In this document: positions 374 to 29,199 of the stretch, one piece after another | Layout of the letters: the number at the start of each line of letters is the position of its first letter | Numbering within the stretch: the first letter of the stretch is position 1 | Source: Candidatus Woesearchaeota archaeon | GTDB taxonomy: Archaea > Nanobdellota > Nanobdellia > Woesearchaeales > CG1-02-33-12 | Direction: 5' to 3' | Assembly: GCA_017610275.1 (NCBI GenBank) | Contig: JAFCCI010000002.1 | Span: 1 to 41,337 of the forward strand | DNA: 41,337 bases | Made by a program: the position numbers and the translations under genes | Notes under the pieces: generated by a model | Database searches by the model: none | What the model saw: the letters and a program-made list of their open reading frames with translations, nothing else | Told to the model about the DNA's origin: nothing

Positions 374-1063
374 ATGAAAACAACAGCAATAATACTAGCA
401 GCAGGAAAGGCAAAAAGAATGATGACCCATAAAAATAAACTCTTCTTAGAGCTGCGAAAACCAATCTTAATACATTCAATAGAGGCATTTGAAAACCACA
501 AATTAATCAATGAGATAATAATTGTTGTAAACAAAAAGGATTTAGAAGCTTGCAGCAAGATTGTTGAAAAAAATATATTTAAAAAAATAAAAAAAATAAT
601 GGTTGGGGGTGAAACAAGGCAGCAGTCATCATACAATGGTGTTATGGAAGCAGATTCTGATATTATCCTTATTCATGATGGGGCAAGACCGCTTGTAACA
701 GAGGATTCCATAACAAACTCAATCAGGGACTCCTTAAATTATGGAGCTTCTGTTGTTGCAGTACCTCTAAAGGAAACTGTAAAAAAGATTGATAACTGTT
801 TTGTTCAAAACACCCTTGACAGAGATGCATTATGGGTTGCCCAAACCCCACAAACATTCAGGGCAGATATTATTAAAGAGGCGCATGAAACAGCAAAAAG
901 GGATGGTTTTTTTGGAAAAGATGATTCTTCATTAGTTGAAAGAATAGGTTATAAGGTTAGGATATGCAGGGGGCATTATGAAAATTTAAAGATAACAACA
1001 CCAGATGATTTGGTAATAGCAAAGCATATATTTAAGAAAAATAATGGTGATTATTATGATTAG
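374..1063 (+). CDS. ispD: 2-C-methyl-D-erythritol 4-phosphate cytidylyltransferase
   Basis: Motifs ILAAG..KRM, GGETRQQS, IHDGARP, QTPQ and KITTPDDL; MEP operon context. Confidence 0.96.
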   Translation: MKTTAIILAAGKAKRMMTHKNKLFLELRKPILIHSIEAFENHKLINEIIIVVNKKDLEACSKIVEKNIFKKIKKIMVGGETRQQSSYNGVMEADSDIILIHDGARPLVTEDSITNSIRDSLNYGASVVAVPLKETVKKIDNCFVQNTLDRDALWVAQTPQTFRADIIKEAHETAKRDGFFGKDDSSLVERIGYKVRICRGHYENLKITTPDDLVIAKHIFKKNNGDYYD

Positions 1064-1535
1064 GGTTGGTATTGGCCAGGATTCTCATAGATTTATAATA
1101 AAAGACCAAAAAAGCCTTGTTCTTGGTGGTGTAATAATCCCTGATGAAAAGGGCTTAGAAGGAAATTCTGATGGTGATGTTGTGCTGCATGCTATTTTCA
1201 ATGCCCTTAGCCAGGCTGTTGGCAAAAGATCAATAGGTGTCTATTCTGATAAGATGTGCAGAGAAGGAATTAAAGACAGCAGAAAATACCTAAAAGTGGC
1301 ATTGAAGATGGTCAAAGACACTGGTTACAGGGTAAATAATATTGGTGTGATGATTGAGGCAAAAAAACCAAGAATTGAGCCATATGCTGATGATATGAAA
1401 AAGAGCATAGCAGGTATATTAATGATAACACAGGACATGATTGGCATAACAGCCACTTCTGGCGAGGGTCTTACTGCCTTTGGCAGAGGCATGGGAATAC
1501 AGGTATTTGCAATAGCAACTGTTATTAGGTGTTAA
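1056..1535 (+). CDS. ispF: 2-C-methyl-D-erythritol 2,4-cyclodiphosphate synthase
   Basis: MIRVGIGQDSHR (DxH metal motif), SDGDVVLHA, ATSGEGL. Start moved to ATG 1056, 5 nt after a GGTGA RBS. Confidence 0.95.
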   Translation: MIRVGIGQDSHRFIIKDQKSLVLGGVIIPDEKGLEGNSDGDVVLHAIFNALSQAVGKRSIGVYSDKMCREGIKDSRKYLKVALKMVKDTGYRVNNIGVMIEAKKPRIEPYADDMKKSIAGILMITQDMIGITATSGEGLTAFGRGMGIQVFAIATVIRC

Positions 1536-1539
1536 TATA

Positions 1540-2406
1540 ATGGAAATAATCCAAAAGGCATATGCCAAAATCAACCTTTCCTTGGATATCATTAAGAGGA
1601 TTTCTTCTGGATATCATAAAATAGAATTTGTTATACAGGAACTTGAGCTGCATGATATAATTAAAATAAAGAAAATAGAGAAAGGAATCAAACTTAATTG
1701 CAATACTAATATTTGTCCAGCTAATGAAAACCTTGCTTACAAAGCAGCAGAGCTTCTTATTAAAAAATTTAAAATAAACAATGGTGTTGAAATAACTATT
1801 GAGAAGAATATCCCTATTGCATCTGGTCTTGGCGGAGGAAGTTCAGATGCTGCTGCAACATTAAAAGGCATGAATAAGCTCTTTAACCTAAATTTATCAG
1901 AGGAGGAATTAATTGAAATATCTGGCGATATTGGCATGGATGTTCCATTCTTTATTCTTGGCAGCACGGTTCACGTAACTGGCCGGGGGGAAAATGTCAA
2001 AAGAATAGAAACCATGCCCAATAACATTTACTTTGTTCTGGCAAAACCAAAGTTTAGTATTTCAACAGAATATGCTTATAATAATATTGATTATGAAAAA
2101 ACAGGCAAGCAGCTAAAAACAGCTGAGATGATTAATACAATCATGGAAAAAGATATTAAAAAAATTGCAGAGAATATGCATAATGATTTTGAATATTCTA
2201 CCTTTAGGGAATATCCAATTATTAATGAAATTAAGCAAAAAATGATAGAAAATAAAGCATTAAATGCACTGATGTCTGGCTCTGGCCCAACTGTTTTTGG
2301 GATAACCAAAGAGAAAGCTGTTGCAGAAAACATATGTAACAGTTTAAAAGAAGACCCTTATTTTAAGAAAAATATTGAGTTTGTTTGTGTAACACAAACA
2401 AGGTGA
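1540..2406 (+). CDS. ispE: 4-diphosphocytidyl-2-C-methyl-D-erythritol kinase (GHMP family)
   Basis: AKINLSL, IPIASGLGGGSSDAA (GHMP motif), MSGSGPTVF. Confidence 0.96.
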   Translation: MEIIQKAYAKINLSLDIIKRISSGYHKIEFVIQELELHDIIKIKKIEKGIKLNCNTNICPANENLAYKAAELLIKKFKINNGVEITIEKNIPIASGLGGGSSDAAATLKGMNKLFNLNLSEEELIEISGDIGMDVPFFILGSTVHVTGRGENVKRIETMPNNIYFVLAKPKFSISTEYAYNNIDYEKTGKQLKTAEMINTIMEKDIKKIAENMHNDFEYSTFREYPIINEIKQKMIENKALNALMSGSGPTVFGITKEKAVAENICNSLKEDPYFKKNIEFVCVTQTR

Positions 2407-2410
2407 AATT

Positions 2411-3217
2411 ATGAAAGTTATTTGTGCAGAAAACATGGGATTTTGTTCTGGAGTCAAGAGGGCATTGGATATGGTTTTAAATGAAAGAAATGCTTATACA
2501 TTAGGGCAATTAATACATAATCCACAGGTTGTTGAACTTCTTGAGAAAAAAGGAATTAAAGTTGTTAATTCAGTTGATGAAGCTGATAGAACCTTGATTA
2601 TAACTGCTCATGGGACACCAAAATCAAATATTGAAAAAGCAAAGAAGAAGGAATTAAGAATAATTGATACAACTTGCCCCCTTGTAAAAAGGGTTCATGA
2701 GCTTGCTGTGGAGTTTGACAAAAAAGAATACAAAATAATTTTATTGGGTGATAAGGAACACCAGGAAGTTAAGGGGACTGCAAGTAATGCAAAAGATGTT
2801 ACAATTATAAGTTCTGATGAAGAAGCAAGCAAAATGAAGTTGGATAAGGCTTGTTTCCTGTCCCAAACAACGCAGTCATTAGAAAAATTTAAAGAAATTG
2901 CTGATATATTAAAGAAAAATATTCCTGAACTGAAAATTTTTAATACAATATGTGATGCTACAAAGAAAAGGCAGGATTCAGCTATGAATCTTGCTAAAAA
3001 GGTTGATTTAATGATTATTATTGGCGGTTATAACAGTGCTAATACAAAAAGATTAAAGGAAATATGCAACAAGATAGTTGAGACAAAACACATCGAAAAA
3101 GCTGATGAAATTGATTTTGAATGGTTTAAAGATAAAAAAATAGTTGGATTGACAGCCGGAGCATCAACACCTGATCAGGTAATTAAGAGAGTTAAAGATA
3201 GAATAGAAAAGTATTAA
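2411..3217 (+). CDS. ispH: HMBPP reductase IspH/LytB
   Basis: Three cluster cysteines (GFCSGV, TTCPLV, TICDAT), plus HNP, SQTT, SANT and TAGASTP. Confidence 0.97.
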   Translation: MKVICAENMGFCSGVKRALDMVLNERNAYTLGQLIHNPQVVELLEKKGIKVVNSVDEADRTLIITAHGTPKSNIEKAKKKELRIIDTTCPLVKRVHELAVEFDKKEYKIILLGDKEHQEVKGTASNAKDVTIISSDEEASKMKLDKACFLSQTTQSLEKFKEIADILKKNIPELKIFNTICDATKKRQDSAMNLAKKVDLMIIIGGYNSANTKRLKEICNKIVETKHIEKADEIDFEWFKDKKIVGLTAGASTPDQVIKRVKDRIEKY

Positions 3218-3218
3218 T

Positions 3219-3917
3219 TTATTTCCCGAAGCGCCTGTCCCTGTTTTTGTATTCTTCAATTACTTTTATTAGGTCTTCTTTTTCAAACTCAGGCCAAGCC
3301 TTTTCAAGAAAAAACCATTCTGAATATATTGACTGCCATGGCAGAAAGTTGCTTGTTCTTCTATCGCCGCCAGTCCTTATTATGAGATCTGGCTCTGTAT
3401 TCAAGTAAAGGTTTTCTGAGAATGTTTCTTCATTAATATTCTTTATCTCCAACTCTTTGTTCTCAACTTTTTCAGCAACCTTTTTCACAGCATCAATAAT
3501 TTCTTCCCTTCCGCCATATGCAAGGGCAATGTTAATTTTGTAATCATTATAATCCTTAGTTAAGTCAATAACTTTTTTTATTTTTTCCTGCACCTTTTCT
3601 GGGAACAAGTAATACCTGCCAATTATATTTATTCTTATCTTATCTTTATGAATATCTTCGTTTGTTGATACTTCATTAAATCCTTTTTCAAAGAGATTCA
3701 TAAGATAGTCAAATTCTTTTTTGGGTCTGTTGAAGTTCTGCATAGAGAAACAGTAAAGTGTTATCTCCTTAATTTCTAGTTCCTTGCACCATTTAAACAG
3801 TTTTTTAATCTTTTTAAAGCCTAATTCATGGCCTTTCCATGGCTCTAGCATAAGCCTTTTTGCAAAGCGCCTGTTCCCATCTAAAACAATGCCTATATGC
3901 TCTGGATTCTTGTTCAT
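3219..3917 (-). CDS. uppS: cis-prenyltransferase (polyprenyl diphosphate synthase)
   Basis: PEHIGIVLDGNRRFA, FSMQNFNRP, YGGREEI, PDLIIRTGG..RTSNFL and C-terminal RRFGK. Confidence 0.96.
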   Translation of the reverse strand: MNKNPEHIGIVLDGNRRFAKRLMLEPWKGHELGFKKIKKLFKWCKELEIKEITLYCFSMQNFNRPKKEFDYLMNLFEKGFNEVSTNEDIHKDKIRINIIGRYYLFPEKVQEKIKKVIDLTKDYNDYKINIALAYGGREEIIDAVKKVAEKVENKELEIKNINEETFSENLYLNTEPDLIIRTGGDRRTSNFLPWQSIYSEWFFLEKAWPEFEKEDLIKVIEEYKNRDRRFGK

Positions 3918-5324: not shown

Positions 5325-6311
5325 TTATGTTTGGATTAATTCTTTAATTTTATTAAACTGATTACGATATTCTGATAACTCTTTTTTAGCAAATTCAAAT
5401 TTTCTCTCTCTTATGAATGGAGCAAAATAACTTTTCTTATTATTATCATTTAGATTGTATTTTTTCTCCAAATTAAACATATTTTTTCTTATTATTTCCA
5501 TACCTTCCACTGCTTTTTCGTTAAACAAATTCCTTAAATTCTGTATATGTGATTTATATTCCTCAAGAATAACTTTGTTTACAGCATAAATGGGTGATTG
5601 TAAATTAGTTGAAATATTCTTTTTTATATCATATAAAAGATAGATATCTTCTTCTGAGATTTTATATTGGTTAAGAAATATTCCTTTGATTTTTTTTATG
5701 TCCTTGCAAACATTATACAAATTTGCAAATTCAAGTGCTTTTTGTTCAGGATTTAATTCAGAATTAATTATCTTCTCTAAATGAGCTTTGTCAAGCATCG
5801 GCATCAGAACATCCATAAAAATTATTGCCTTTAAATCTTTTATATCATTGGATTGTTTTATTAAGCCCTTTATTTCATTATGATTTAATAATCCCATATA
5901 AGATGTAGAAAGAATTTCAAAATTCATGTCATTACAATACTTTAAAAGTGAATCAAATACTTTTGGTCTTTTATTGTATCTATGTTTTTCTTTTTCAACT
6001 AAGCCTATTGCACAATAATCAATTAAGGAATTTGAATCCTGTTTATTTAACAATTGGATAATTTCTTTTTTGTCTTTTTTGTCAAACCCAAGATAATAAT
6101 CAGATAAAATAGTATTCCTTAAGTCTGTAAAATCAACTTTTTCTTTAATTACCTCCTTTTTTAGATTGTCAATAAAATAATTTAATATTATATTGTCTTC
6201 AATTACATCAGAAATTCTTGTAAAATCAGGTTTTATAGTGCTTGCTATAGATTTAACTCTTTCTTCCAAACTTTTCTCTGAATTAAATTGATTTTCATCT
6301 TCTTTTTTGAT
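5325..6311 (-). CDS. Hypothetical helical protein (probable ATC start; ORF track uses TTG 6269)
   Basis: Operonic, 1 nt from the next gene. AGGTGA lies 6 nt before an in-frame ATC at 6311. Confidence 0.6.
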   Translation of the reverse strand: MKKEDENQFNSEKSLEERVKSIASTIKPDFTRISDVIEDNIILNYFIDNLKKEVIKEKVDFTDLRNTILSDYYLGFDKKDKKEIIQLLNKQDSNSLIDYCAIGLVEKEKHRYNKRPKVFDSLLKYCNDMNFEILSTSYMGLLNHNEIKGLIKQSNDIKDLKAIIFMDVLMPMLDKAHLEKIINSELNPEQKALEFANLYNVCKDIKKIKGIFLNQYKISEEDIYLLYDIKKNISTNLQSPIYAVNKVILEEYKSHIQNLRNLFNEKAVEGMEIIRKNMFNLEKKYNLNDNNKKSYFAPFIRERKFEFAKKELSEYRNQFNKIKELIQT

Positions 6312-7011: not shown

Positions 7012-9276
7012 TTAACCTGAAGCATCGTAGAAAATTTTGTTGAATTCTTTTTGGAGTTGAGGGCTTAATTTGGATATATCATCAGAAAGAGTCTTACTCA
7101 ATTCAATTTTGGTATTGTCTTTAATTTTGTATTGGTCTTTTAGTTCATATGGTTTAAGAGAGCCCTTAGTTCCAGCATTTTTCAATGATCCTATATTGTA
7201 TTTTGTTCCAAACTCCCTAATCTTTTGCTGCCTGTTTTTTTGATTTTGATTACTTGCTGAGCTTTCATTAGCTGCATAAACTAATTCCCATAACCCTGGA
7301 TTTCCAGTTTCCTCATCCATAACCCCCCAAAGGGTATCTCCTTTTTGAATTACATACTCCCTTTTGTTATCTTGATTATTTATAGCTGTTTTGCCAATAT
7401 GCTGAGTGATATCCTCCCTAGTATAATTTACTTTGTTACCAGGATTGTAAACAACTAAAGGAATATTTTCTCTTTCTATAATCTGCTCTGCTTTTTTAGT
7501 TGACTGGATATCTTTAATTGAATTAATTCGCTTATGATTAGCATACATAAGTGATCCTGCCCCAATTGCAAGGGATAATACTCCTATAAGACCAATTTTC
7601 CAGTATTTTTTCACAGTCCTTTTTATGAAACTTTTTGTTTTTACAGAATAATCTCTCAAGGTGTTACTTATATAATTGAGTGGATTATATTTGATTATAT
7701 TTGGCGGCTCTTTTTTATTATTTTTTCTTCTCCAGTTCACATTATTTCCATTATTTTCATATTTATGAAGGATCCTGTAAAGTGTAGATGTGCTGAATTT
7801 TTTCTCTGGCTCATTTTCCCGCCTGTTTTTATTTAACTCACTGCGTAAATTCTTAACCTTAACATTTGTGTTATTATACAAATTAATAATATCTGCTTTA
7901 TACTCATCAGGAATCTTATTTGCTCTTTTTTCTATATTATAACCATTATTTTCTGCTTCCCTTAGAATTTTGTCAAGAGTATAATTATTGATATTATATT
8001 TGCTGCATATCTGTTTTCTGGTTAATTCTTTATAATTGTTATACTTATCTATAATCCCCTCTAGGTTATTATGCGGAGTTCTATGTACAACTTCATTTAT
8101 TTGAGGCTCAATAGTCTTTTTCTCTTCAGCTGAATTGTTTAATTTATTATCATATATTATTGCTGGCAATTGTTTTATATGTTCAGTTGGAGTCTCTTTT
8201 TTATATATATTCTTTTGTTCTTCACCTTTGTCTTTTAGCTTTTCTTCAGGAGTTTTTGTTATTATTTCTTCTAAGTTTTTATTCACTTCCTCATTTTTTT
8301 CAGAAGGCTTAACCACAATCATATTAAAATTATTAACCCTTGTTTCTACTCCACTTATGATTTTTCTTAATTCATAGTCTAATACTTTTCTAGTTGGAAG
8401 CTTTCCGTTATGGTGAACCCTTTTTGATACATGATCAACTAATTTTTTATAGTCTTCAAATTGAACGTTTCCATCATCTATAACCTCTAGAGCAACATCT
8501 TTTCCTTTTACATAATTTATTTTTTCATCTCCCTTCCCTTTATAAGAAACTTCTAAGTAAGGTTGTATATTTTTGCTGTTGGTTACCATGCTATAAGCAT
8601 ATGAAATTTTTATTGGGTCAGCTTTTTCAACTTTGGCTATTTTAACATCCTTAAGAAGAGGTATAATCTCTGAATTAATCTTATCTATTGACAACCTGAA
8701 AGAAGGACTATTGTTATTATTTTGATTTATTAATAAATAATTTTTACCATCTTTATTAGAATAATTTAAGTTATAACCTCCTTCCAAATTGTCTATATCA
8801 ACGAAATTGTCTATAGTAATTTTATTATTAGGGAACACACTATAAGAAACTCCTTTAAAATTTTCTCTGTCATCTGGAGAATGAAAAGGTCTATGATCCA
8901 GTCCATGGCTATGCCACCAGCCTATTATTTTAGACCCTCTTCTCTGAATTTTTTTGAATTCATTCATCTCAGAAGATGGATCACCAATACATTTTGAAGA
9001 TGTAACAGATTGGTTATGAGCTAAATATATATCATTAACAACATCTTTATTGGTTCCTTCTGGCGCAATTAAATAACCCATGGCTTCTACTGATTCATTA
9101 AATAATATTGGTGCTATCGTAGAATAAAAGTTTGCCTTTAATAAAGCACTTTTTTTTATTTTTAATTTTTTAATTAAATTATTATTATTATTATTATTTG
9201 AGTTTAGAGTACTATTTAAGTTGAAATGCTCTTCTTTTTTTAAAAGTAATTTCCTTATTTTATTTTTTATTGGCAT
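7012..9276 (-). CDS. JAB/MPN+ metalloisopeptidase - HTH-like repeats - TM helix - LysM fusion
   Basis: EAMGYL...GWWHSHGLDHRPFHSPDD (JAMM motif); LTRKQICSKYNINNYTLDKIL and FSTSTLYRILHKY (HTH-like); TM WKIGLIGVLSLAIGAGSLMYA; YVIQKGDTLW (LysM). Confidence 0.8.
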   Translation of the reverse strand: MPIKNKIRKLLLKKEEHFNLNSTLNSNNNNNNNLIKKLKIKKSALLKANFYSTIAPILFNESVEAMGYLIAPEGTNKDVVNDIYLAHNQSVTSSKCIGDPSSEMNEFKKIQRRGSKIIGWWHSHGLDHRPFHSPDDRENFKGVSYSVFPNNKITIDNFVDIDNLEGGYNLNYSNKDGKNYLLINQNNNNSPSFRLSIDKINSEIIPLLKDVKIAKVEKADPIKISYAYSMVTNSKNIQPYLEVSYKGKGDEKINYVKGKDVALEVIDDGNVQFEDYKKLVDHVSKRVHHNGKLPTRKVLDYELRKIISGVETRVNNFNMIVVKPSEKNEEVNKNLEEIITKTPEEKLKDKGEEQKNIYKKETPTEHIKQLPAIIYDNKLNNSAEEKKTIEPQINEVVHRTPHNNLEGIIDKYNNYKELTRKQICSKYNINNYTLDKILREAENNGYNIEKRANKIPDEYKADIINLYNNTNVKVKNLRSELNKNRRENEPEKKFSTSTLYRILHKYENNGNNVNWRRKNNKKEPPNIIKYNPLNYISNTLRDYSVKTKSFIKRTVKKYWKIGLIGVLSLAIGAGSLMYANHKRINSIKDIQSTKKAEQIIERENIPLVVYNPGNKVNYTREDITQHIGKTAINNQDNKREYVIQKGDTLWGVMDEETGNPGLWELVYAANESSASNQNQKNRQQKIREFGTKYNIGSLKNAGTKGSLKPYELKDQYKIKDNTKIELSKTLSDDISKLSPQLQKEFNKIFYDASG

Positions 9277-9277
9277 T

Positions 9278-10789
9278 TTATTTCTTATAAAAATCTTGGC
9301 TGCAAGGACAACCCTTTCTTGGATTTCTTATATGATTTCCTAAGATAATTCGATTAGCTGAAAGAGAATTATAGTATATACTATCCCTTATTGTAAAACC
9401 ATAAACTTCTGGGTAAAATATTTTCTTGACTTCTCCAACAATCATTGCACTAATTATCTGGTTTGACATAACAACACTTGGATCATGGTTATCTGCAATA
9501 CAACTAGTCGGGGTAATATCATTTTCTTTAGCCTCCTTTTGTGCCAGTAAATACACATTCTTATGGCAATCTATACAAGCAGTTTTTCCAGGATTATATA
9601 CACTAACCTGTCCTGAAAAAGGTTCTGTTCCTGCATCTATATATGGAATCTTATTTTTTACAGCTATTTTATTAATAAAAGCCCTAGTGGTAAAAGTATC
9701 GACTCCCCCTATAATTAAATCACAATTAAGTTTTAGAAGTTCTGACTCACCGATAAGTTTTACCCCTTGGCTTCTTTCATTTTCATTAAGATATTCACCT
9801 ACCTTTCCATATAATCCTTTAATATTAATATTAGGGTTTATGTTCTTCAAAGCTTTAGAAAGCACGTCTACTTTTCTTTTGCCTATATTATTTTCAAAAT
9901 TATAAAGAATTTGTCGATTTGGATTAGTAGCATCTACTTCATCCATATCAATCATATATATTTGATTTATTCCTAAAAGGGATAATCCTAAACCAACAAA
10001 ATTTCCTACTGCTCCTGCACCTATCATTACAATTTTTTTATCCTTAAATAAATCTTTTTCATTAAGATAACAGTCAAAATTAAGAGTTATGTCTGATTTG
10101 TCCTCAAATCTTTTATTTGATAATAAATTATAAGTTACTGCTTTTTTTAGTAATTTATCATTTGGTTTTAATTTAAGAATAGATTTTCTAATCTCTTCTG
10201 TAGCCAATCCACCAATGAGCCCATTAGGTATGTTTCCCTGTTTGGAGTTTTCAAAATCTAAAAATAAATAATCTTCTATAGTTTTTGAATTATTGTTTTT
10301 TGATAAAAGGATTTTTTCTACTTGATTCATTGGTTCATAAACCATTATCTTTCCTTTGTTTTCGCTTGTAGAAGCAGTAATTAAAGGTATTCTTAACCTA
10401 TCTGAAAGTTTTAGACTATTCAATTTTGAGCTCGGTTTGTTTGTAAGATCAACTAAAACATTTGGTTTTCCTATTAAATCATAAAAAGGCTCAGAATGTA
10501 TGCCCAACACATTAATATTTTCATTCATCTGAGAGATTATTTTTTCAAGGTGCTTAACCTTACTTATTTTTTCCTTTTTTTTATAGTAGTTAAAAAAAAG
10601 AAATTCATTAATGTCATTGTGATAATAGTTATTATCAATAATTCTTATATTTCCAACTTGCAATCCTGTAAGATTAGCTAAAACAAAATTACATAAAGAA
10701 CCAGCCCCTATTATTGTTACAAGAGAACCATCTAACTTTTTTTGGTCCCAATTTGTTATTCTTTCTTGTCTATCGGTCCTTTCTGAAAT
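9278..10789 (-). CDS. E1-like activating enzyme with tandem ThiF domains (degenerate N-terminal, active C-terminal); probable ATT start
   Basis: The frame extends 42 codons upstream of TTG 10663 as ISERTDRQERITNWDQKKL..VTIIGAGSLC. The C-terminal domain has IGAGAVG, DMDEVDATNPNRQ, GVDTF, CIDC, TSC and CPC. Confidence 0.88.
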   Translation of the reverse strand: MSERTDRQERITNWDQKKLDGSLVTIIGAGSLCNFVLANLTGLQVGNIRIIDNNYYHNDINEFLFFNYYKKKEKISKVKHLEKIISQMNENINVLGIHSEPFYDLIGKPNVLVDLTNKPSSKLNSLKLSDRLRIPLITASTSENKGKIMVYEPMNQVEKILLSKNNNSKTIEDYLFLDFENSKQGNIPNGLIGGLATEEIRKSILKLKPNDKLLKKAVTYNLLSNKRFEDKSDITLNFDCYLNEKDLFKDKKIVMIGAGAVGNFVGLGLSLLGINQIYMIDMDEVDATNPNRQILYNFENNIGKRKVDVLSKALKNINPNINIKGLYGKVGEYLNENERSQGVKLIGESELLKLNCDLIIGGVDTFTTRAFINKIAVKNKIPYIDAGTEPFSGQVSVYNPGKTACIDCHKNVYLLAQKEAKENDITPTSCIADNHDPSVVMSNQIISAMIVGEVKKIFYPEVYGFTIRDSIYYNSLSANRIILGNHIRNPRKGCPCSQDFYKK

Positions 10790-11636
10790 TTATACCACCA
10801 AACAGTTTTTTCTTTCTTTTATGCATTATAAGTTTGTCATCGCTGATTAATTTTGTTTTTAGCTCTTCTAATATTCCATGGTAATCTAAAATCTCCTTAT
10901 CGGATATTATTTCTTTAAGTTTAACATCTTTTTTTATGATTACCTCCTTTTCAGGATATTTAATAGCTATCTCAGCGTAAGGAAGCATAGAATAAAAGCG
11001 ATTAAAAACAAGACTATAAGCAAAAGACACACCCCTATATTTTTTTCTTCTAATACTCTTTACCCCAAGGGTTACTAGCTTTGAAAGATTATTTACCTCT
11101 ATTTCAACATAATCTTCAAAAGGATTTGATCCCTTTACAATAAGGTATTTTTTACCATCATCTTCTTTATTATAGTTTACTTTTAGTGGACCATCCAATA
11201 ACTGAATTATTTCTCTTTTTAACGCTTTTTTATTATGTGGAAAAACTGCTAGATAAAGATTTTTGAAATTATCATCATCATCTGGTGAATGAAAAGGATG
11301 AGATTGGGCATGACTATGCCACCACCCCATTATCTTATAACCTTTATTTTCAATTTCCTTTATTGCATCCATATCAGTTCCCACCTCAGCACTATAATGT
11401 GTACTTTCTACATTCTGTTTATTTGACAAAAAAATATCTTTTACAATACAATCATCATCATTCTTTGGTGTTATAAGATAACCGCCGCACTCAAGCGGTT
11501 TCCTGAAAATCTTGCAAGCTAATGAAGAATATGCTTTTGCTTTTTTGTAAGCATAGTCAGTTATAGGTACCTCATTCAGAAAATCTTTTGTCTTATTTTT
11601 TAATTTGTTTTCTAAAATATATTTTATTTTATCCAT
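10770..11636 (-). CDS. Stand-alone JAB/MPN+ metalloisopeptidase
   Basis: ECGGYL (catalytic Glu) and GWWHSHAQSHPFHSPDD (HxH-x7-S-xx-D); GGAGGT RBS. Confidence 0.88.
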   Translation of the reverse strand: MDKIKYILENKLKNKTKDFLNEVPITDYAYKKAKAYSSLACKIFRKPLECGGYLITPKNDDDCIVKDIFLSNKQNVESTHYSAEVGTDMDAIKEIENKGYKIMGWWHSHAQSHPFHSPDDDDNFKNLYLAVFPHNKKALKREIIQLLDGPLKVNYNKEDDGKKYLIVKGSNPFEDYVEIEVNNLSKLVTLGVKSIRRKKYRGVSFAYSLVFNRFYSMLPYAEIAIKYPEKEVIIKKDVKLKEIISDKEILDYHGILEELKTKLISDDKLIMHKRKKKLFGGINFRKDR

Positions 11637-11644
11637 CTTACCTC

Positions 11645-12913
11645 CTATTTGAATTTATTTGTAACCGGAATATGTTCCCTATTCAGTTCTTCTAAACTAA
11701 TTAGATTATCCCCAAAGTTTTCTTTATTTAACACTAAATGGGGCATCAAATCACCAAAATAACCTGATCTTAAGGCTGGTTCACCAATCTCCTTTAGAAG
11801 GTAGCATACTTTTTCAGCAATCTTGCCTTTTTTATCAAATTCATTTAGTTTTTTACTTACCTCTTCTTTTCTATACTTATCACCATAACAAATTCTTTGT
11901 TCACTTACATTTTTAGTGGGAATTAAAGGATGAGAATATATATCAATTATAACTGGATAACCAACTTCAATCTTATTTTTTTTTGGTGTTAGTTCAACTC
12001 CTAACTTACATTTTTCAAATTTATAATATTCATCAGTCTTAAGCGATTTAAGGGCAAATGGTTTTTCCTTAATAAAAACATAAAAATGGTTATAACTATT
12101 TTTATTTGTTTTTAAGAAACCTATATTTCCTTCTTCATAACATCTTTTATTTACTATACTCAGAAAATTGTCTCTTTGTTTAAGCAGTTGGATTCTTTCG
12201 GTTAATTTCTGTGAGCCATAATCCGCAGCTTTAGTTATCTCAGTAAATAATAATTTTGAGTATTCATTTTCTAAATTCTTTAAGTTCTTTATGAAACTAT
12301 ATGAATAACATGAATTATTTATTTTAAATTTGTTTCTTATTTTTTGATAAAATGTTTTAGGTATTTTTTTGATTTCATATACATTACCATTAGAGATAAG
12401 TATGTTGTTTTTTATTATACCCCTTTCTAGCATGGAGTATTCCCTATTTAAAATATATTCAAAACCATCTTTAGTATTTTTATAGTTATAACTATTTTCT
12501 TTTAATTCTAAAATCTTAAGGATTTTTTTATTTAATTTTTTTTTATGATTCACTTTTTTTTTCTTTTTCTTATGGTTAACTAAAGGAAAAATTTCCCCAA
12601 CAGCAAAATTAATAAGTTCATATTCATTCTTCAATTTATTTATATCTTTTTTTATTAATTGACTTTCTTCTGATTTTGTTTTGGTTAGATTATTAAAAAT
12701 ATCTTTAAATTCATTTTCATTGTTTTTAAAATAAATCATTTCAAGAGATTTTAGAGTTTCCGATTCCTTTAGATTATATTTATTATTAAGCATATAAAAA
12801 AAGCTATTGCCCTCTTCAACCTTAGGCTCAACTGTATAAAGCCTATTGTTCACGATAAGGCAAAGCTTAGATTCTTCTGCAATACTAATAAATAAGGGTT
12901 TTGGGAGATTCAT
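11645..12913 (-). CDS. Putative E2/UBC-like conjugating protein with a duplicated N-terminal module
   Basis: C-terminal PVIIDIYSHPLIP-x8-ICYG resembles the UBC P....YHPN....IC signature. Lies between the candidate Ubl and the JAB/E1 genes. Confidence 0.5.
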   Translation of the reverse strand: MNLPKPLFISIAEESKLCLIVNNRLYTVEPKVEEGNSFFYMLNNKYNLKESETLKSLEMIYFKNNENEFKDIFNNLTKTKSEESQLIKKDINKLKNEYELINFAVGEIFPLVNHKKKKKKVNHKKKLNKKILKILELKENSYNYKNTKDGFEYILNREYSMLERGIIKNNILISNGNVYEIKKIPKTFYQKIRNKFKINNSCYSYSFIKNLKNLENEYSKLLFTEITKAADYGSQKLTERIQLLKQRDNFLSIVNKRCYEEGNIGFLKTNKNSYNHFYVFIKEKPFALKSLKTDEYYKFEKCKLGVELTPKKNKIEVGYPVIIDIYSHPLIPTKNVSEQRICYGDKYRKEEVSKKLNEFDKKGKIAEKVCYLLKEIGEPALRSGYFGDLMPHLVLNKENFGDNLISLEELNREHIPVTNKFK

Positions 12914-12914
12914 A

Positions 12915-13349
12915 TTACTTCAATAGAATATAATCCAGCCCAGAAGAACCCTCTGGTGTTACATGAACTTCCAGATCAAGTCCTTTATACACTTTTTCAT
13001 CAATAGATTTTGGTTCAAAATAATCTTTTGCTATTTCTGTTGGACTTATTAATTCTTGAGTTTCACCATTTCTATTTTGAAAATATTTGTACTCTCCATC
13101 ACTATCTAACGCTTTTATTCCTAACATTTTTTTAGGTCTTTTTGATTCTTCTAAAACGTTTTCTACACTACCCATTACTTCTTTTTCTGTTTCATTAAAA
13201 CCATTATCTTTTATTAGGTATTTTATTAAATCATTCATTGTCAAATTTGGTTCACCATACAACTTCTCACTTACATCTTTAACTATTGCATCTGTTTGTG
13301 TTATTGGACACTTTATACTTGCAATATATGTTTCTTTTTCATCTGCCAT
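12915..13349 (-). CDS. Small protein, candidate ubiquitin-like modifier (precursor with tail after PEG/SG)
   Basis: First gene of the E2-JAB-E1 operon; ends LDLEVHVTPEGSSG-LDYILLK; paralog at 16188-16607. Confidence 0.45.
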   Translation of the reverse strand: MADEKETYIASIKCPITQTDAIVKDVSEKLYGEPNLTMNDLIKYLIKDNGFNETEKEVMGSVENVLEESKRPKKMLGIKALDSDGEYKYFQNRNGETQELISPTEIAKDYFEPKSIDEKVYKGLDLEVHVTPEGSSGLDYILLK

Positions 13350-14614: not shown

Positions 14615-14851
14615 TTATTTCTTGTCTTTTGGATAATATAATGTCAGGCTTTTTTCAAGCCCATCAAGTTGAATTGTATCTTCCATGACTTTTTTATCGA
14701 CAGTTTGGTAATAAGCAGGTTTTGTATAACTAATGTCTTTTTTTATTTCATTATTTATGTCTATTTTTTCACATCCTCCACCCATATAATATCCAATTGA
14801 GAATATCGCAAAATACTTCAATAATTTAAAGCCGAATCTGATAAGCCCCAT
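14615..14851 (-). CDS. Small putative lipoprotein / exported protein
   Basis: Basic N-terminus, hydrophobic stretch, then MGGG-C (lipobox-like); GGGGTGA RBS. Confidence 0.55.
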   Translation of the reverse strand: MGLIRFGFKLLKYFAIFSIGYYMGGGCEKIDINNEIKKDISYTKPAYYQTVDKKVMEDTIQLDGLEKSLTLYYPKDKK

Positions 14852-15358
14852 TCACTGCTCACCCCTTTCAAAATAATCATTGACTTTCTTTTCAAGGTTT
14901 TTGTAAAACTCCTTGACTTTTGGTTTTTGTTCTTCAGCAAAATCTACAATTTTATTGTATGTACTATCAATTTTTTCACTGATTAATGGCTTTATTATCC
15001 TGAGCTTTCTCTCATTAGACATCTCGCTTATTCTTTTCTCAAGAAGATCATCGCTGAACATGTCTGCTATTTCTTTGTCATAGTTGTTTTCAATACCAAT
15101 TTTGCTTATATCTAGAATATAATTCTTGAATTCTTCAGGATTTTTGCTGATAATCCCTTTTGTATACCCAAAAAGCTCATCCATATTTTTCCCGGCAATG
15201 CCATACCTTGGCTGCTCTTGTTTTTCAGTCACCACAATCACCTTCTCCTGCACAACAGGTTTTGTTTTCTCTGTTTTTCCACATCCAGCACCAAGGTAGC
15301 TTGTTGCTGCAATCGCTCCTGTCAAAAACAAAATTCCAATTGTTCTTTTTAATCCCAT
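14852..15358 (-). CDS. Putative lipoprotein
   Basis: MGLKR, hydrophobic core, LGAG-C lipobox-like motif. Confidence 0.65.
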   Translation of the reverse strand: MGLKRTIGILFLTGAIAATSYLGAGCGKTEKTKPVVQEKVIVVTEKQEQPRYGIAGKNMDELFGYTKGIISKNPEEFKNYILDISKIGIENNYDKEIADMFSDDLLEKRISEMSNERKLRIIKPLISEKIDSTYNKIVDFAEEQKPKVKEFYKNLEKKVNDYFERGEQ

Positions 15359-16187: not shown

Positions 16188-16607
16188 CTATTTTGTTCTT
16201 TCTCCATCAGGAGCAGGACAACACATAAGTTCTAAATTCAATGCCTTATACTTTATTTCGTCAAGAGTGTTATTTTTAAAATAATCTTTTGATATTTCAA
16301 GCCCAATTTTTTCTATAATTTGCCCATTCTCGTTTTTATCTAACATCTCATAATTATCCTGTCCATTAATCTTTATCAGTAACATATTATAACTCTTTCT
16401 TCCTCCTTTTATTTCATATTTTAAGGCTTTTTTTAGTTCTTTTTCCTCTTCATCAAATCCATCATCCTTTAATAAATAACCTATTAATTCGTTAATATTT
16501 AAGCTTGGGTTATCTTTTAGTTTTTTAGTTATATCTTTCATAATTGGCATATAATAATCATTATACTTTTTTACACTTGCAATATATGGTTCATCTTTCT
16601 GTTCCAT
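16188..16607 (-). CDS. Paralog of the candidate Ubl (12915-13349)
   Basis: Shares YIAS.K, KD...KL...P.L..N.LI.YL.KD.GF.E.EKE, EI.KDYF.....DE..YK.L.LE and a terminal P[DE]G plus short tail. ATG 16607 aligns with the paralog's start. Confidence 0.7.
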   Translation of the reverse strand: MEQKDEPYIASVKKYNDYYMPIMKDITKKLKDNPSLNINELIGYLLKDDGFDEEEKELKKALKYEIKGGRKSYNMLLIKINGQDNYEMLDKNENGQIIEKIGLEISKDYFKNNTLDEIKYKALNLELMCCPAPDGERTK

Positions 16608-16631
16608 TTTCACTCAAAATATAATGGGCTC

Positions 16632-26087: not shown

Positions 26088-26936
26088 CTATTTTAATATA
26101 TCATAGAAAGCATCAAATATTGGCTTGTCTGTTGTTACAATGTTAAAATCAAGTCCAAGCTCATCACATATCTTTGCTATCCTTGATATATGGTCTTCAA
26201 GCTTTTTTTTATAACCAACCCTAAGCCTTGGATTTATATATGTCCTTAGCATATTCTTTGTTTCAGAGTCCTTAAGCCTGAAATCTCCCTGAAATGCAAG
26301 CTCCCTTTCCACAGGATCCAAGATTTGTATTATTTTCATATCCTGATCTCCAAGCATAATAAGTCCTTGTTCTATCTCTTCAATATCAAACAGGAAATCA
26401 GATATAATAACCACAAGGGCTCTTGAGCCTATCATTTTTTTGTACCTGCTCATTGCATCCTTGAATCTTGAAACACCAGTCAGCTTTATGCTATTCAGGT
26501 GGTCAACCATGCTTGCAAGGTGACCCATGCCTCTCTTTGGCTTAAAGGTTTCAAGGCCTTCTGAAAAAGTTGAGAACTGGAATTTTTCATTCTCTTTCAT
26601 CGCTAAATATGCTGTTCCAACTCCAAGCATAGAGGCATAGTCAAACTTTGTAACTCCCTTTCCAAAATTCATGCTTCCGCTGTGGTCAACTATTATATGT
26701 GTTGTAAGGCTTTTATCCTCTTCATATCTCTTGATGTAAAGGTCATCTGTCCTTGCAAATATTCTCCAGTCTATTGCCCTGAAATCATCTCCGGGAGCAT
26801 AAATCCTATGGTCTTTTATTGTTATGCCCCTGCCATGCATTACAGAGCGCCTTTCTCCTGTATAACTTGATGTAACTCTTTTCCTTACAATAAGATTAAA
26901 CTTGCCAAGCTGGGACAGAAATTCAGTTGTTATCAT
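26088..26936 (-). CDS. DUF58 (vWA-like) MoxR partner
   Basis: R.YAPGDDFRAIDW, DHSGSM, IISDF. Confidence 0.92.
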   Translation of the reverse strand: MITTEFLSQLGKFNLIVRKRVTSSYTGERRSVMHGRGITIKDHRIYAPGDDFRAIDWRIFARTDDLYIKRYEEDKSLTTHIIVDHSGSMNFGKGVTKFDYASMLGVGTAYLAMKENEKFQFSTFSEGLETFKPKRGMGHLASMVDHLNSIKLTGVSRFKDAMSRYKKMIGSRALVVIISDFLFDIEEIEQGLIMLGDQDMKIIQILDPVERELAFQGDFRLKDSETKNMLRTYINPRLRVGYKKKLEDHISRIAKICDELGLDFNIVTTDKPIFDAFYDILK

Positions 26937-27868
26937 TTTGCCTTGCTTATTATTTCTTTGATGGCATCATCTGTTGACATTCCCTTTCTTTCAGCCTCAA
27001 AATTTAATATAATCCTGTGTCTTAATATTGGGTAAGCCATTGCATCAATATCCTCCTTGCTAACATAGTTTCTTCCCTTTAGAAGTGCTCTTGCCTTTGA
27101 TGCAAGAACTAAGCCAATAGATGCCCTTGGTGATGCCCCATATTCTATTAAATTGGGGTGTTTTCTTGTCTCAGTAACTATACTGACTATCCTATGCTTA
27201 AGGTCATTTGCTATTGGGATTTGTCTTACTAAATCCTGCATATGCATAAGATGCGCCTTATCAAGCAATATACTTAACTTATGATTTTTGACTTCAAATG
27301 CATATTTATCTACTATTTCAACTTCTTCATCATATGTTGGGTATCCTATCTTAATCTTTAGCAAAAACCTGTCTGCCTGGGCTTCTGGCAGAGGGTATGT
27401 TCCTTCCTGTTCAATAGGATTCTGTGTTGCAAGAACAAAAAACGGCTTGTCAAGCTTGAATGTTGTATTTCCTACAGTAACCTGCTTTTCCTGCATTGCC
27501 TCAAGCATGGCAGACTGCGTTTTTGGTGTTGCCCTGTTAATTTCATCTGCAAGCACAATATTTGCAAATATTGGCCCTGGCTGAAACTTAAAGTTTCTCT
27601 TGCCAGAGGTCTCTTCAATAATATATGTTCCTGTTATATCAGATGGCATTAAATCAGGGGTATTTTGTATCCTGCTGAATTTAAGGTCCATCATTTGGGC
27701 CATTGTTTTTATAGCAAGGGTTTTTGCCAGGCCAGGGTATCCCTCAAGCAGGGCATTTGCATCACATAATATTGTGATCATAATCTGCTCAACAACCTCT
27801 TTTTGCCCAACAACTATTTTTCCTATCTCTTTGTATAAACTATCAAAAGTTTCCTTATACATTTTCAT
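26933..27868 (-). CDS. moxR: MoxR-family AAA+ ATPase
   Basis: GYPGLAKT, RIQ.TPDLMPSDITG, LADEINRATPKTQSA, TQNPIEQEGTYPLPEAQ.DRF, ASPRA. Confidence 0.96.
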   Translation of the reverse strand: MKMYKETFDSLYKEIGKIVVGQKEVVEQIMITILCDANALLEGYPGLAKTLAIKTMAQMMDLKFSRIQNTPDLMPSDITGTYIIEETSGKRNFKFQPGPIFANIVLADEINRATPKTQSAMLEAMQEKQVTVGNTTFKLDKPFFVLATQNPIEQEGTYPLPEAQADRFLLKIKIGYPTYDEEVEIVDKYAFEVKNHKLSILLDKAHLMHMQDLVRQIPIANDLKHRIVSIVTETRKHPNLIEYGASPRASIGLVLASKARALLKGRNYVSKEDIDAMAYPILRHRIILNFEAERKGMSTDDAIKEIISKAK

Positions 27869-27880
27869 TTTAACACCTCT

Positions 27881-28669
27881 TTAATCTTTTGCAATTTTTA
27901 AAAAATATGCTTTTACAAGCTCCTGCTGGTCTTCCTGAATTTTTTCTTCATAAACATCAGCTGTTTCTACAAATACATCATCTGGAAAAAGCTCTTCAAA
28001 ATCTCTTTTTTCAGGCTCTTTTACCTCATCAAGATTTATCTCATACCCTGCTGGCTTAATTACCATATCAAGCATTTCGCCGCCCATTTGGGCAATTTGT
28101 GCATCACCAAATACGCTCTCGCTTATTCCAGAGCTGGCTATTCTCTCAAGACCCTGCTTTCCATCTCCTGTATTATTTCCGCCAATGCTATATACAAAAT
28201 CAACAGCAGTATTTGCTGCATCTTTGAGATTAAATGATAAGTCAAACCGTGCTGAAAATACCACTAAAAAGCATAATATTATGCTTAATAATATTTTGTA
28301 AGAAACATTCTTTTGGTTAAAAAAAGATGTTACTTCAACCTTTTTCATATCCCTCATAATATTGGATTTCAGCTCATCAACAACTGGATTTTCCATTTTT
28401 ATGTTATCTCTCGCTGTTCTAAGCCTTTCATTAAGAAGGGGATATTTTTTTTCAACATTTATCAAATGTTTTTCCCTAATGCCTTTATATGTTTTAATTA
28501 TAAAATATAATGCTGCAGGAACTAATGCATATATCTGATAAAAATTAAATAAAGACAAAATAATGTAAATAATTAAAAATATCAGAAATGCATTTAGAAA
28601 ACTATTAAACAATACAATATTGTTGAATGTAAAATTTATTTCCCTTAAAACCTTATTAAATTTCTTCAT
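27881..28669 (-). CDS. Membrane protein of the MoxR operon
   Basis: Three TM segments, VEKKYP.L.ERL.TA.D motif, acidic tail ending LVKAYF. Confidence 0.75.
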   Translation of the reverse strand: MKKFNKVLREINFTFNNIVLFNSFLNAFLIFLIIYIILSLFNFYQIYALVPAALYFIIKTYKGIREKHLINVEKKYPLLNERLRTARDNIKMENPVVDELKSNIMRDMKKVEVTSFFNQKNVSYKILLSIILCFLVVFSARFDLSFNLKDAANTAVDFVYSIGGNNTGDGKQGLERIASSGISESVFGDAQIAQMGGEMLDMVIKPAGYEINLDEVKEPEKRDFEELFPDDVFVETADVYEEKIQEDQQELVKAYFLKIAKD

Positions 28670-28672
28670 TTT

Positions 28673-29173
28673 TTATGGGCATGTGCATGTAGCCAGCTGA
28701 GCATTCAGGTCAACTATATCTTCGTTTAAACCAGCTATATCCACTCTGAGTCCTGATATTGTTGTCTGAGCAGCAGTAAGGCTTGTCTTTGTTGTGCCAA
28801 GTTCTGCCTGTACTGTGAATAATTCTGCTTTTTTCAGCTTTAACTCATTTGTTTTTGCTGTTAACTGTGTTTGTAATTTTGCTTTGTCATCCTCTAATTT
28901 TTCCTTTTCAGTTCTTAGTTCTGTGTACTGCGTGCTTAGCTCTTTTTCTCTTTCTTCCTTGATAGTAAGTTGCTGGCTTGTCTGCTCAAGCTTTGCTTTT
29001 TCAGTGCCCAGGGTTGATGAAACATTTTTTAAATCCTCTATCCTCATTTGGTAATCCATGTACAAATCCTTAAACGTTGCCTGATAATAAAGGCTTAATC
29101 CAGCAAGAGATATAAGGACTGCAACTAATAAAAGAAAAAAACCAAAGTTAACATTTCTTTTCATATATGCCAT
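28673..29173 (-). CDS. Single-TM coiled-coil protein
   Basis: N-terminal TM followed by heptads; ends CTCP; GGTGA RBS. Confidence 0.75.
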   Translation of the reverse strand: MAYMKRNVNFGFFLLLVAVLISLAGLSLYYQATFKDLYMDYQMRIEDLKNVSSTLGTEKAKLEQTSQQLTIKEEREKELSTQYTELRTEKEKLEDDKAKLQTQLTAKTNELKLKKAELFTVQAELGTTKTSLTAAQTTISGLRVDIAGLNEDIVDLNAQLATCTCP

Positions 29174-29199
29174 GCTATCACCTTATTATTAATTATTAT

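Follow-up and report, generated by a model that had tools for sequence, protein, structure and literature searches.

A gene on the minus strand of a 41,337-nt stretch of contig JAFCCI010000002.1 (assembly GCA_017610275.1, Candidatus Woesearchaeota archaeon), which as a whole we call the window, encodes what homologue alignment and structure prediction support as a compact single-chain asymmetric E1, i.e.: an enzyme in which an inactive adenylation domain (IAD) and an active one (AAD) share one chain. Together with a ubiquitin-like (Ubl) candidate, a protein of 422 amino acids (aa) with an E2-like C-terminal domain (p422) and two JAB peptidases, this E1 would form a protein conjugation cascade. 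We consider this the best explanation of the locus, with a rough probability of 0.7 drawn from genomic context. The host assembly comprises 961 kb in 83 contigs and is 75.7% complete; it encodes a proteasome subunit, and the genes around the system are archaeal housekeeping genes (L31e, S19e, diphthamide synthase, ProRS and a pseudouridine synthase of Cbf5 type). Among named proteins, those nearest to the E1 are from records labelled Woesearchaeota, Nanoarchaeota or Nanoarchaeia, so that the host is a DPANN-type archaeon with a small genome. Among the sequencing runs listed for this DNA none is of RNA, the DNA shares are small (at most 0.13), and the contigs obtained from such runs come from relatives.

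Both halves of the protein belong to the ThiF/MoeB/E1 superfamily. Scanned alone, each half exceeds the PF00899 cut-off of 28.1: the C-half scored 142 bits, and the N-half (residues 1-235), which matches positions 10-224 of the 238 in the profile, scored 54.1 bits; the ThiF fold that an earlier reading made from the letters alone (the sequence-only reading) had assumed for the N-terminal half is thus borne out. The two ThiF matches of the E1 in the whole-genome Pfam scan (141.7 and 53.4 bits) are the only ones in the assembly. Compared with each other, the halves are 27% identical over 149 aa (E 1e-7), the mark of an internal duplication.

Conservation is uneven between the two domains, as judged from an alignment of 37 full-length E1 homologues to which the residue counts of the E1 below refer. 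Besides the P-loop, NRQ and Mg-binding positions given in Table 1, the AAD keeps the ribose aspartate D281, the lysine K306 and R369 in 37/37 sequences. The equivalents in the IAD have drifted: the second P-loop glycine is kept in 14/37 (aspartate in 16/37) and the third in 3/37, the ribose position is aspartate in 16/37, K306 corresponds to a lysine in 17/37, and D364 corresponds to asparagine in 28 sequences and to aspartate in none. The equivalent of the NRQ arginine R292 is an arginine in a single sequence. The sequence-only reading had noted that the N-terminal copy lacks the nucleotide motif. The motifs that it had named are all present: RTDRQ (4-8), GAGSLC (28-33), GLIGGLATEEIRK (190-202), GAGAVG (257-262), D..VD..N.NRQ (283-293), CIDC (405-408), TSC with C430, and CPC (494-496).

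The opposite pattern is found for RxxRQ, which is kept in the IAD only, with no such motif in the AAD. This is what one would expect if the dead domain just supplied an arginine in trans. By analogy, the RxxRQ arginine of the IAD may be lent to the nucleotide site of the AAD, as in BilD, where Arg9 is the arginine lent by the dead domain to the live site according to the published description.

An AlphaFold2 model of the E1, computed from the 37-sequence alignment, reached a mean predicted local distance difference test score (pLDDT) of 90.1 and a predicted template modelling score (pTM) of 0.92. Its best PDB rows in Foldseek were full-length single-chain eukaryotic E1s (UBA7, UBA1 and UBA6; E 5e-24 to 1e-19, 556-765 columns). 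The model as a whole can be matched to Uba1/UBA6/UBA7 and to BilD, while the homodimeric MoeB and ThiF match one half only. The sequence thus carries two ThiF domains of asymmetric conservation, and the model arranges them with respect to each other as in Uba1 and BilD: the two halves are predicted to pack as a pseudo-dimer of an inactive and an active adenylation domain in one chain. Residue statistics, a confident model and full-length structural matches all agree with the single-chain IAD+AAD architecture put forward in the sequence-only reading, and the whole chain superposes on both of the reference enzymes that it had suggested.

Two groups of cysteines in the AAD differ in conservation. 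The four predicted zinc ligands come and go together: 20/37 homologues have the complete set, 2 rows have three of them, and 15/37 have none. Four of the 15 homologues without zinc cysteines are Woesearchaeota-type rows, and the others are the rows from Asgard archaea, bacteria and Methanosarcinales (the loci concerned include L017, L018, L020, L021, L024-L027 and L032), and all of them keep C430, the proposed catalytic cysteine, which is invariant. C430 follows C408 after 21 residues and a single 14-residue helix (412-425), and lies in residues 428-431, the only segment of at least three residues with a pLDDT below 50. A search with the last 108 residues, aimed at aligning the catalytic cysteine with those of solved E1s, returned chance matches only.

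From these features and from the neighbouring genes we propose the following mechanism, in which the enzyme would behave as a canonical asymmetric E1. The IAD, devoid of nucleotide binding, would act as an obligate dimer partner that gives its RxxRQ arginine to the sole active site. A JAB peptidase would first trim the short extension of the 144-aa Ubl-like protein, probably to ...PEG, and the AAD would bind Mg-ATP and adenylate the C-terminal glycine so exposed. C430, in a crossover loop that is short and flexible and lies between both zinc pairs, would then take the Ubl as a thioester and pass it to C342 in the E2-like domain of p422, and from there to target amines. The two JAB proteins would both mature the Ubl and reverse the tagging.

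The genes follow each other on the same strand in the order 358-aa coiled-coil-like protein, 144-aa protein, p422, JAB (288 aa), E1, 754-aa JAB protein, transglutaminase-like protein and two proteins of unknown function (coordinates in Table 1). Prok-JAB matches nothing else in the genome than the two JAB proteins; the 754-aa one has an intact JAMM motif with one extra residue. By eye, this larger protein looks membrane-anchored, as it has a single hydrophobic helix (IGLIGVLSLAIGAGSLMY), and its C-terminal stretch resembles LysM. Upstream of the operon, at 14615-15358 of the minus strand, lie two small proteins with lipoprotein-like N-termini (...GAGCGK and ...GGGCEK), which are syntenic in loci L037-L043.

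The C-terminal 190 residues of p422 define a large family, with at least 671 clusters at 50% identity (profile search at E <= 1e-3 among 1.84 billion representatives). P329 and C342 are the sole invariant residues among 149 aligned members, and H328 is nearly so in a closer set; the resulting motif, H-P-[FL]-x(about 12)-[IL]-C-x-G, is reminiscent of the HPN...C motif of E2 enzymes. A model of this domain (pLDDT 78) shows a helix, an antiparallel sheet, the HP...C loop and further helices, and UBC/UEV folds make up 9 of the 50 weak VIA structural rows listed for it: the Cap2 N-terminal region (5.2), a chain of the BubCD-BubB-BubA entry (5.1), UbcH7 (4.8), 1yrv (4.8), FTS (4.7), UbcH5b (4.5), UFC1 (4.4), E2S (4.4) and Tsg101 (4.2). 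Pfam and PADLOC gave no match to p422, Foldseek gave none in the PDB at E <= 0.001, and the profile found a single chance match among PDB sequences; in the ESM Atlas the leads were weak (a best row of 0.90 without family and, at rank 13, a cluster of which 14% carried Prok-E2_D). Aligned with hhalign to 21 Asgard UQ_con proteins, the C-terminal profile gave a probability of 1.6% over 19 columns, covering just both catalytic motifs, and UQ_con was not found in four genomes carrying the E1 family. By reasoned inference, then, we regard the C-terminal domain of p422 as E2-like.

The 144-aa protein had no match in Pfam, PADLOC or the ESM Atlas, and its candidate Ubl fold and putative identity come from the pattern of its C-terminus. 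In 15/18 aligned rows of the family a final strand and a Gly-rich tail are followed by 4-10 more residues (9-10 in its own clade): PEG/SSGLDYILLK here, KGG/SGLDYILSK in relatives, and HDEGG/KGLEEKL or IEMGGG/AVENFFMKI in distant and Asgard loci. The window carries a paralogue of this gene, as do L037-L042, where one copy ends in ...YARG at the stop.

Table 1. Features of the E1 gene and of its operon in the window (positions of the 41,337-nt stretch; counts are homologues out of 37 aligned).
Feature	Position	Strand	Evidence or remark
E1 gene, 503 aa plus stop (P0001)	9278..10789	-	Open frame; two ThiF domains; model pLDDT 90.1, pTM 0.92
Probable start: Shine-Dalgarno (SD)-like GGTGGT (10799-10794), TAA (10792-10790), ATT (10789-10787)	10787..10799	-	TAA-ATT in 7/7 relatives, there preceded by GGTGATC
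IAD, residues 1-235	10085..10789	-	ThiF 54.1 bits; degenerate site residues
RTDRQ (R4-Q8), proposed arginine finger for the AAD site	10766..10780	-	R7 36/37, Q8 34/37, R4 32/37
AAD, residues 236-503	9281..10084	-	ThiF 142 bits; nine site residues 37/37
AAD P-loop GAGAVG (257-262)	10004..10021	-	G257, G259, G262 in 37/37
NRQ (291-293) in AAD	9911..9919	-	R292, Q293 in 37/37; N291 36/37
D364, equivalent of the Mg-binding Asp	9698..9700	-	37/37
CIDC (C405, C408), predicted first zinc pair	9566..9577	-	Residue counts in 37 homologues
C430, proposed catalytic cysteine, crossover loop	9500..9502	-	37/37; in low-pLDDT segment 428-431
CPC (C494, C496), predicted second zinc pair	9302..9310	-	Residue counts in 37 homologues
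JAB/JAMM peptidase, 288 aa	10770..11636	-	Prok-JAB 1.3e-9; HSHAQSHPFHSPDD motif intact; 20-nt overlap with start of E1
Second JAB protein, 754 aa: JAB, helix-turn-helix-like region, putative transmembrane helix, LysM-like C-terminus	7012..9276	-	Prok-JAB 3.9e-6
Transglutaminase-like protein, 233 aa	6324..7025	-	Transglut_core 3.2e-17
p422, 422 aa, with C-terminal E2-like domain (~11648-12211)	11645..12913	-	H328-P329 at 11927-11932; C342 at 11888-11890
Ubl-like precursor candidate, 144 aa, ending ...LEVHVTPEG/SSGLDYILLK	12915..13349	-	Gly-rich tail plus extension in family alignment
Paralogue of the 144-aa protein, 141 aa, ending ...PAPDG/ERTK	16188..16613	-	39% identity, E 9e-25

We sought the same partners next to other members of the E1 family, using our own hidden Markov models on 23 independent two-domain E1 loci (E1s collapsed at >=80% identity, at least 3.5 kb of upstream sequence). 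A JAB gene is found upstream of the E1 in 20/23 loci, the HP...C domain in 20/23 and the Ubl-like family in 12/23, in a set that spans Asgard (L017, L018), Methanosarcinales (L021) and bacterial (L023-L027, L030) loci. Other proteins recur near the E1 in smaller numbers: AAA or AAA_2 ATPases (L004, L005, L014, L024, L025, L027), transglutaminase-like proteins (L005, L013 and, with a BTLCP match below the cut-off, L056) and Ser/Thr kinases (L007, L008, L011). ORFs of ~250 aa, loci with less than 3.5 kb upstream and four single-ThiF loci (L057, L064, L115, L116) were dropped before counting. These last four, from metagenomes, encode E1s of ~400-414 aa in which the only ThiF domain is active and which contain a CxxC motif and a long insertion; they have no JAB or HP...C neighbours; considered as two-domain E1s, they were rejected on inspection and represent a different archaeal-type E1 family.

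The start of the E1 gene deserves separate attention. Its frame is open from stop to stop over 10789..9281 of the minus strand (503 aa, stop TAA at 9280-9278), which is exactly the span 9278..10789 given in the sequence-only reading. That span holds as a reading frame but not as a listed ORF: no ATG, GTG or TTG exists in frame between the upstream TAA (10792-10790) and 10663, so the listing begins at a TTG and gives only 9278..10663 (461 aa), and the 503-aa version needs an ATT. This ATT directly follows the TAA in 7/7 metagenome relatives that are ~60% identical (L037-L043, positions 5990-6003), and the motif preceding TAA-ATT is GGTGGT in the window and GGTGATC in those relatives. SD-like 4-mers at -16..-6 precede 12/42 ORFs of the window, that of the E1 lying at -10. 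Homologues begin with M-x(2-8)-RYxRQ, which makes ISERTDRQ the probable true N-terminus of the E1, and among distant homologues an ATG stands 0-9 codons before RYxRQ in 19/21 loci in which the motif was located. Most likely, judging from this conservation, translation starts at the conserved AUU 10789 and is coupled to termination of the JAB gene. As a consequence of the AUU start, public gene calls would cut the first 42 to about 86 residues of these E1s; the database calls in the clade are truncated to 461, 467, 466 and 417 aa.

Two other accounts of the start have to be weighed. One could suspect that the E1 is made as a BubCD-like JAB-E1 fusion by recoding, i.e.: by readthrough of the TAA in the relatives and by a +1 shift in the window. 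In all seven of the relatives L037-L043 the upstream JAB gene is indeed in the frame of the E1, ends at the TAA and runs into the E1 across this single stop, and JAB-E1 fusions do exist (BubCD, according to its published description). In the window, however, the two genes are one base out of register: the reading frame of JAB ends 20 nt inside the E1, and that of the E1 is closed by many stops upstream of the TAA. A 409-nt contig from another study's run (~95% alike) bridges 10673-11084 with sole indels that sum to 3 nt (10830-10836) and hence crosses the junction without a change of frame. An SD-like motif at normal spacing precedes the ATT, and in the 19/21 distant loci an ATG stands shortly before RYxRQ, in most of them with a separate JAB ORF that ends just upstream, all of which makes a recoded fusion quite unlikely. 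The alternative that the public call is correct, with a start at TTG 10663, a protein of 461 aa and the first 42 residues never made, has in its favour that this TTG is the first canonical start in frame and that database proteins P0002, P0003 and P0006 are called in this way (P0008 and P0009 are shorter still, at 417 aa). Such a protein would lose the RxxRQ motif, the first strand and the P-loop region, all of them conserved (R7 in 36/37; W14 and Q16, near the N-terminus, invariant in the homologue alignment), modelled at pLDDT 82-98 and encoded by 42 codons that are conserved as protein in relatives ~60% identical; we hold it to be highly improbable.

Regarding function, the sequence-only reading had argued for conjugation over sulfur transfer. 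Context sides with it, although this falls short of a demonstration: sulfur transfer is disfavoured because the second site is dead, C430 is invariant, JAB (two JAMM peptidases), HP...C and Gly-tailed proteins accompany the E1, and no ThiS/MoaD family match was found in the 75.7%-complete genome. The E1 might still be an E2-independent activator of the SAMP/UbaA or Urm1/Uba4 type, acting by thiocarboxylation or by direct conjugation, with p422 not being an E2. Sequence affinities lend some weight to this idea, as the IAD profile is nearest to MoeB (7e-22), Uba4 and ThiF, the AAD scores with ThiF (2e-30) near Uba1 (7e-32), and the E2-likeness of p422 is itself conjectural. It is nevertheless unlikely: known E1s of the sulfur type are homodimers with two active sites, Pfam scans detect no rhodanese domain on this E1, two JAB peptidases flank its gene, and a protein with an invariant HP...C cysteine accompanies it in 20/23 loci. 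A very unlikely alternative is an adenylase like MccB or PaaA, in which the AAD would activate a small protein or peptide at its C-terminus, not for conjugation but to cyclise it or attach a nucleotide. The best PDB sequence matches of the whole E1 include MccB (9e-18) and PaaA (1.3e-12), and MccB reaches 2.4e-28 with the AAD profile; yet the N-terminal domain is a ThiF copy and not a peptide clamp, the whole chain superposes on Uba1 and BilD, C430 is invariant, and the neighbours (JAB, the HP...C protein and the Gly-tailed 144-aa protein) are of ubiquitin type. A conjugation cascade remains our preferred explanation, and several points weigh against it. Against the AAD, the scores of MccB and ThiF are similar to those of eukaryotic E1s, so that Ubl conjugation is not picked out by sequence alone; the presumed terminal position of the 144-aa protein varies (G, S or A) in close relatives; the fold of that protein is a candidate only; the E1 model comes from 37 sequences and from a network trained on known E1s; and AUU initiation is unusual in archaea.

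To place the E1 family we looked at its distribution and at the phylogeny of its halves. In the metagenome scans a single E1 protein as query found no relative and an alignment did. The order was sampled with 151 genomes. A match of some kind at E <= 1e-10 occurs in 54 of them, and a match spanning both halves is found in 26 of the 150 other genomes (as read from the listed places, not counting three matches that were partial or at a contig edge, of which one is in an unpublished genome), with only the C-half matched in the remainder. Genomes of the same genus (93% complete) and of the same family (97% complete) show no E1 match, and several genomes have more than one two-domain copy (e.g. G207, G215, G224, G259). 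This patchy, multi-copy distribution fits an accessory system. In a quick maximum likelihood tree of 37 IADs, 37 AADs and 13 single-domain ThiFs (one of which, L028, is a fragment of a two-domain protein), with support given by the Shimodaira-Hasegawa-like approximate likelihood ratio test (SH-aLRT) only, all 37 IADs fall on one side of a branch (SH-aLRT 100), and the AADs form a clade (support 98) apart from the 12 true single-domain ThiFs. The halves, whose phylogeny the sequence-only reading had named as a check, come out as two groups with matching subclades, a pattern that fits one old duplication followed by co-evolution of the halves.

Profile searches do not tie the family to any other asymmetric E1. 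The IAD profile ranks MoeB (7e-22), Uba4 (1.5e-19) and ThiF (6e-19) above the eukaryotic UBA7 (1e-14), NAE1 (6e-11) and SAE1 (2e-6), and the scores of the AAD profile are close together (Uba1 7e-32, ThiF 2e-30, SAE2 7e-30, UBA3 8e-30, MccB 2.4e-28). BilD is absent among the 60 rows listed of the 68, 95 and 76 matches obtained with the whole protein, the IAD and the AAD. In these comparisons there is no sign that the E1 family belongs with BilD or with the eukaryotic E1s, and the IAD+AAD layout that it shares with them may be convergent. A tentative and rather doubtful extension would make it a third lineage of asymmetric single-chain E1s beside BilD and the eukaryotic enzymes, with members among the Asgard archaea and with early decay of an IAD that still resembles MoeB. 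The IAD+AAD layout would then either have arisen more than once, by tandem duplication of a MoeB-like gene, or the family would stand near the archaeal stock of the eukaryotic E1; with the HP...C family it would form a new Ubl conjugation system of archaea and bacteria.

The window holds two other groups of genes worth recording. At 374-3917 this archaeal genome carries bacterial-type genes of the methylerythritol phosphate (MEP) pathway (IspD, IspF, GHMP kinase and IspH/LytB) together with undecaprenyl-diphosphate synthase, and at 26088-33353 of the minus strand a MoxR AAA_3 ATPase, DUF58, VWA and BatA-like genes make up a Bat-type cluster.

Until BilD, a dead and a live adenylation domain paired in one E1 were a supposed hallmark of eukaryotes. 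Here the same layout occurs in a minimal 503-aa form in archaea with genomes of roughly 1 Mb, with relatives in Asgard archaea, Methanosarcinales and several bacterial phyla, and alongside a partner family with an invariant cysteine and at least 671 clusters that no library names. If the cascade works as proposed, it would provide the smallest asymmetric E1 for work on mechanism and structure, a test of how IADs evolve, and a way into protein tagging in the DPANN archaea, a group with a largely uncharted biology.

In the literature as far as it was accessible, no archaeal E1 with an IAD and an AAD was found described; bacterial operons related to this one may be listed in the supplements to the Bil and Bub preprints. 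Comparison with characterised systems shows partial resemblances. MccB and PaaA combine a peptide-clamp domain with a single ThiF domain, where the N-terminal 235 aa are here a ThiF domain in their own right. Cap2 of CBASS is a homodimeric E2-E1 fusion, unlike this E1, and the window contains no CD-NTase gene or other CBASS part. BubCD of Citrobacter (PDB 9EAV and others) is likewise a prokaryotic E1 tied to a JAB peptidase and an E2, with a weak sequence match to the AAD (2.7e-4; 8.6e-17 with a profile); its published description presents a homodimeric peptidase-E1 fusion that has no catalytic cysteine and acts through oxyesters, whereas here JAB and E1 are separate ORFs in different frames, the E1 is predicted to form a pseudo-dimer and C430 is invariant. 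The homodimers MoeB, ThiF and UbaA have the same fold and the same catalytic residues as the AAD, and are the nearest to the IAD by sequence. Compared with Uba1/UBA6/UBA7, NAE1-UBA3 and SAE1-SAE2, this E1 is half the size and has no FCCH, SCCH/CYS or UFD domains: its two ThiF domains take up all 503 residues, and Uba1-type targets of ~1000 aa align with it over only 424-454 residues.

The closest parallel in architecture is BilD, the E1 of the type II Bil system of Ensifer aridi (PDB 8TYZ/8TZ0). Both are single chains of ~500 aa in which an N-terminal IAD and a C-terminal AAD form a pseudo-dimer, and the four-cysteine zinc site of BilD, with two cysteines in the crossover loop and another two close to the C-terminus, has its putative counterpart in C405, C408, C494 and C496. 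The operon order Ubl-E2-JAB-E1 of BilABCD is likewise found here as 144 aa/422 aa/JAB/E1, with putative Ubl and E2. The BilA Ubl has a short extension past its glycine: type II BilA is described as carrying up to nine residues after the conserved Gly, which the JAB protein BilC trims, and the tail of the 144-aa candidate (Gly plus 4-10 residues) resembles it. Against these likenesses, the IAD of this E1 scores as ThiF and MoeB, Prok-E2_C gives no match at E <= 0.1 or <= 1, and the partner differs from the Bil E2 by its HP...C motif (His before Cys) and an N-terminal extension of ~235 aa. In BilD the crossover loop houses a helical CYS domain of ~80 aa; here C430 lies 22 residues past the zinc pair, with one short helix in between. 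Because it has no such discrete catalytic-cysteine domain, we count the E1 of this archaeal host in neither the BilD nor the Uba1 family.

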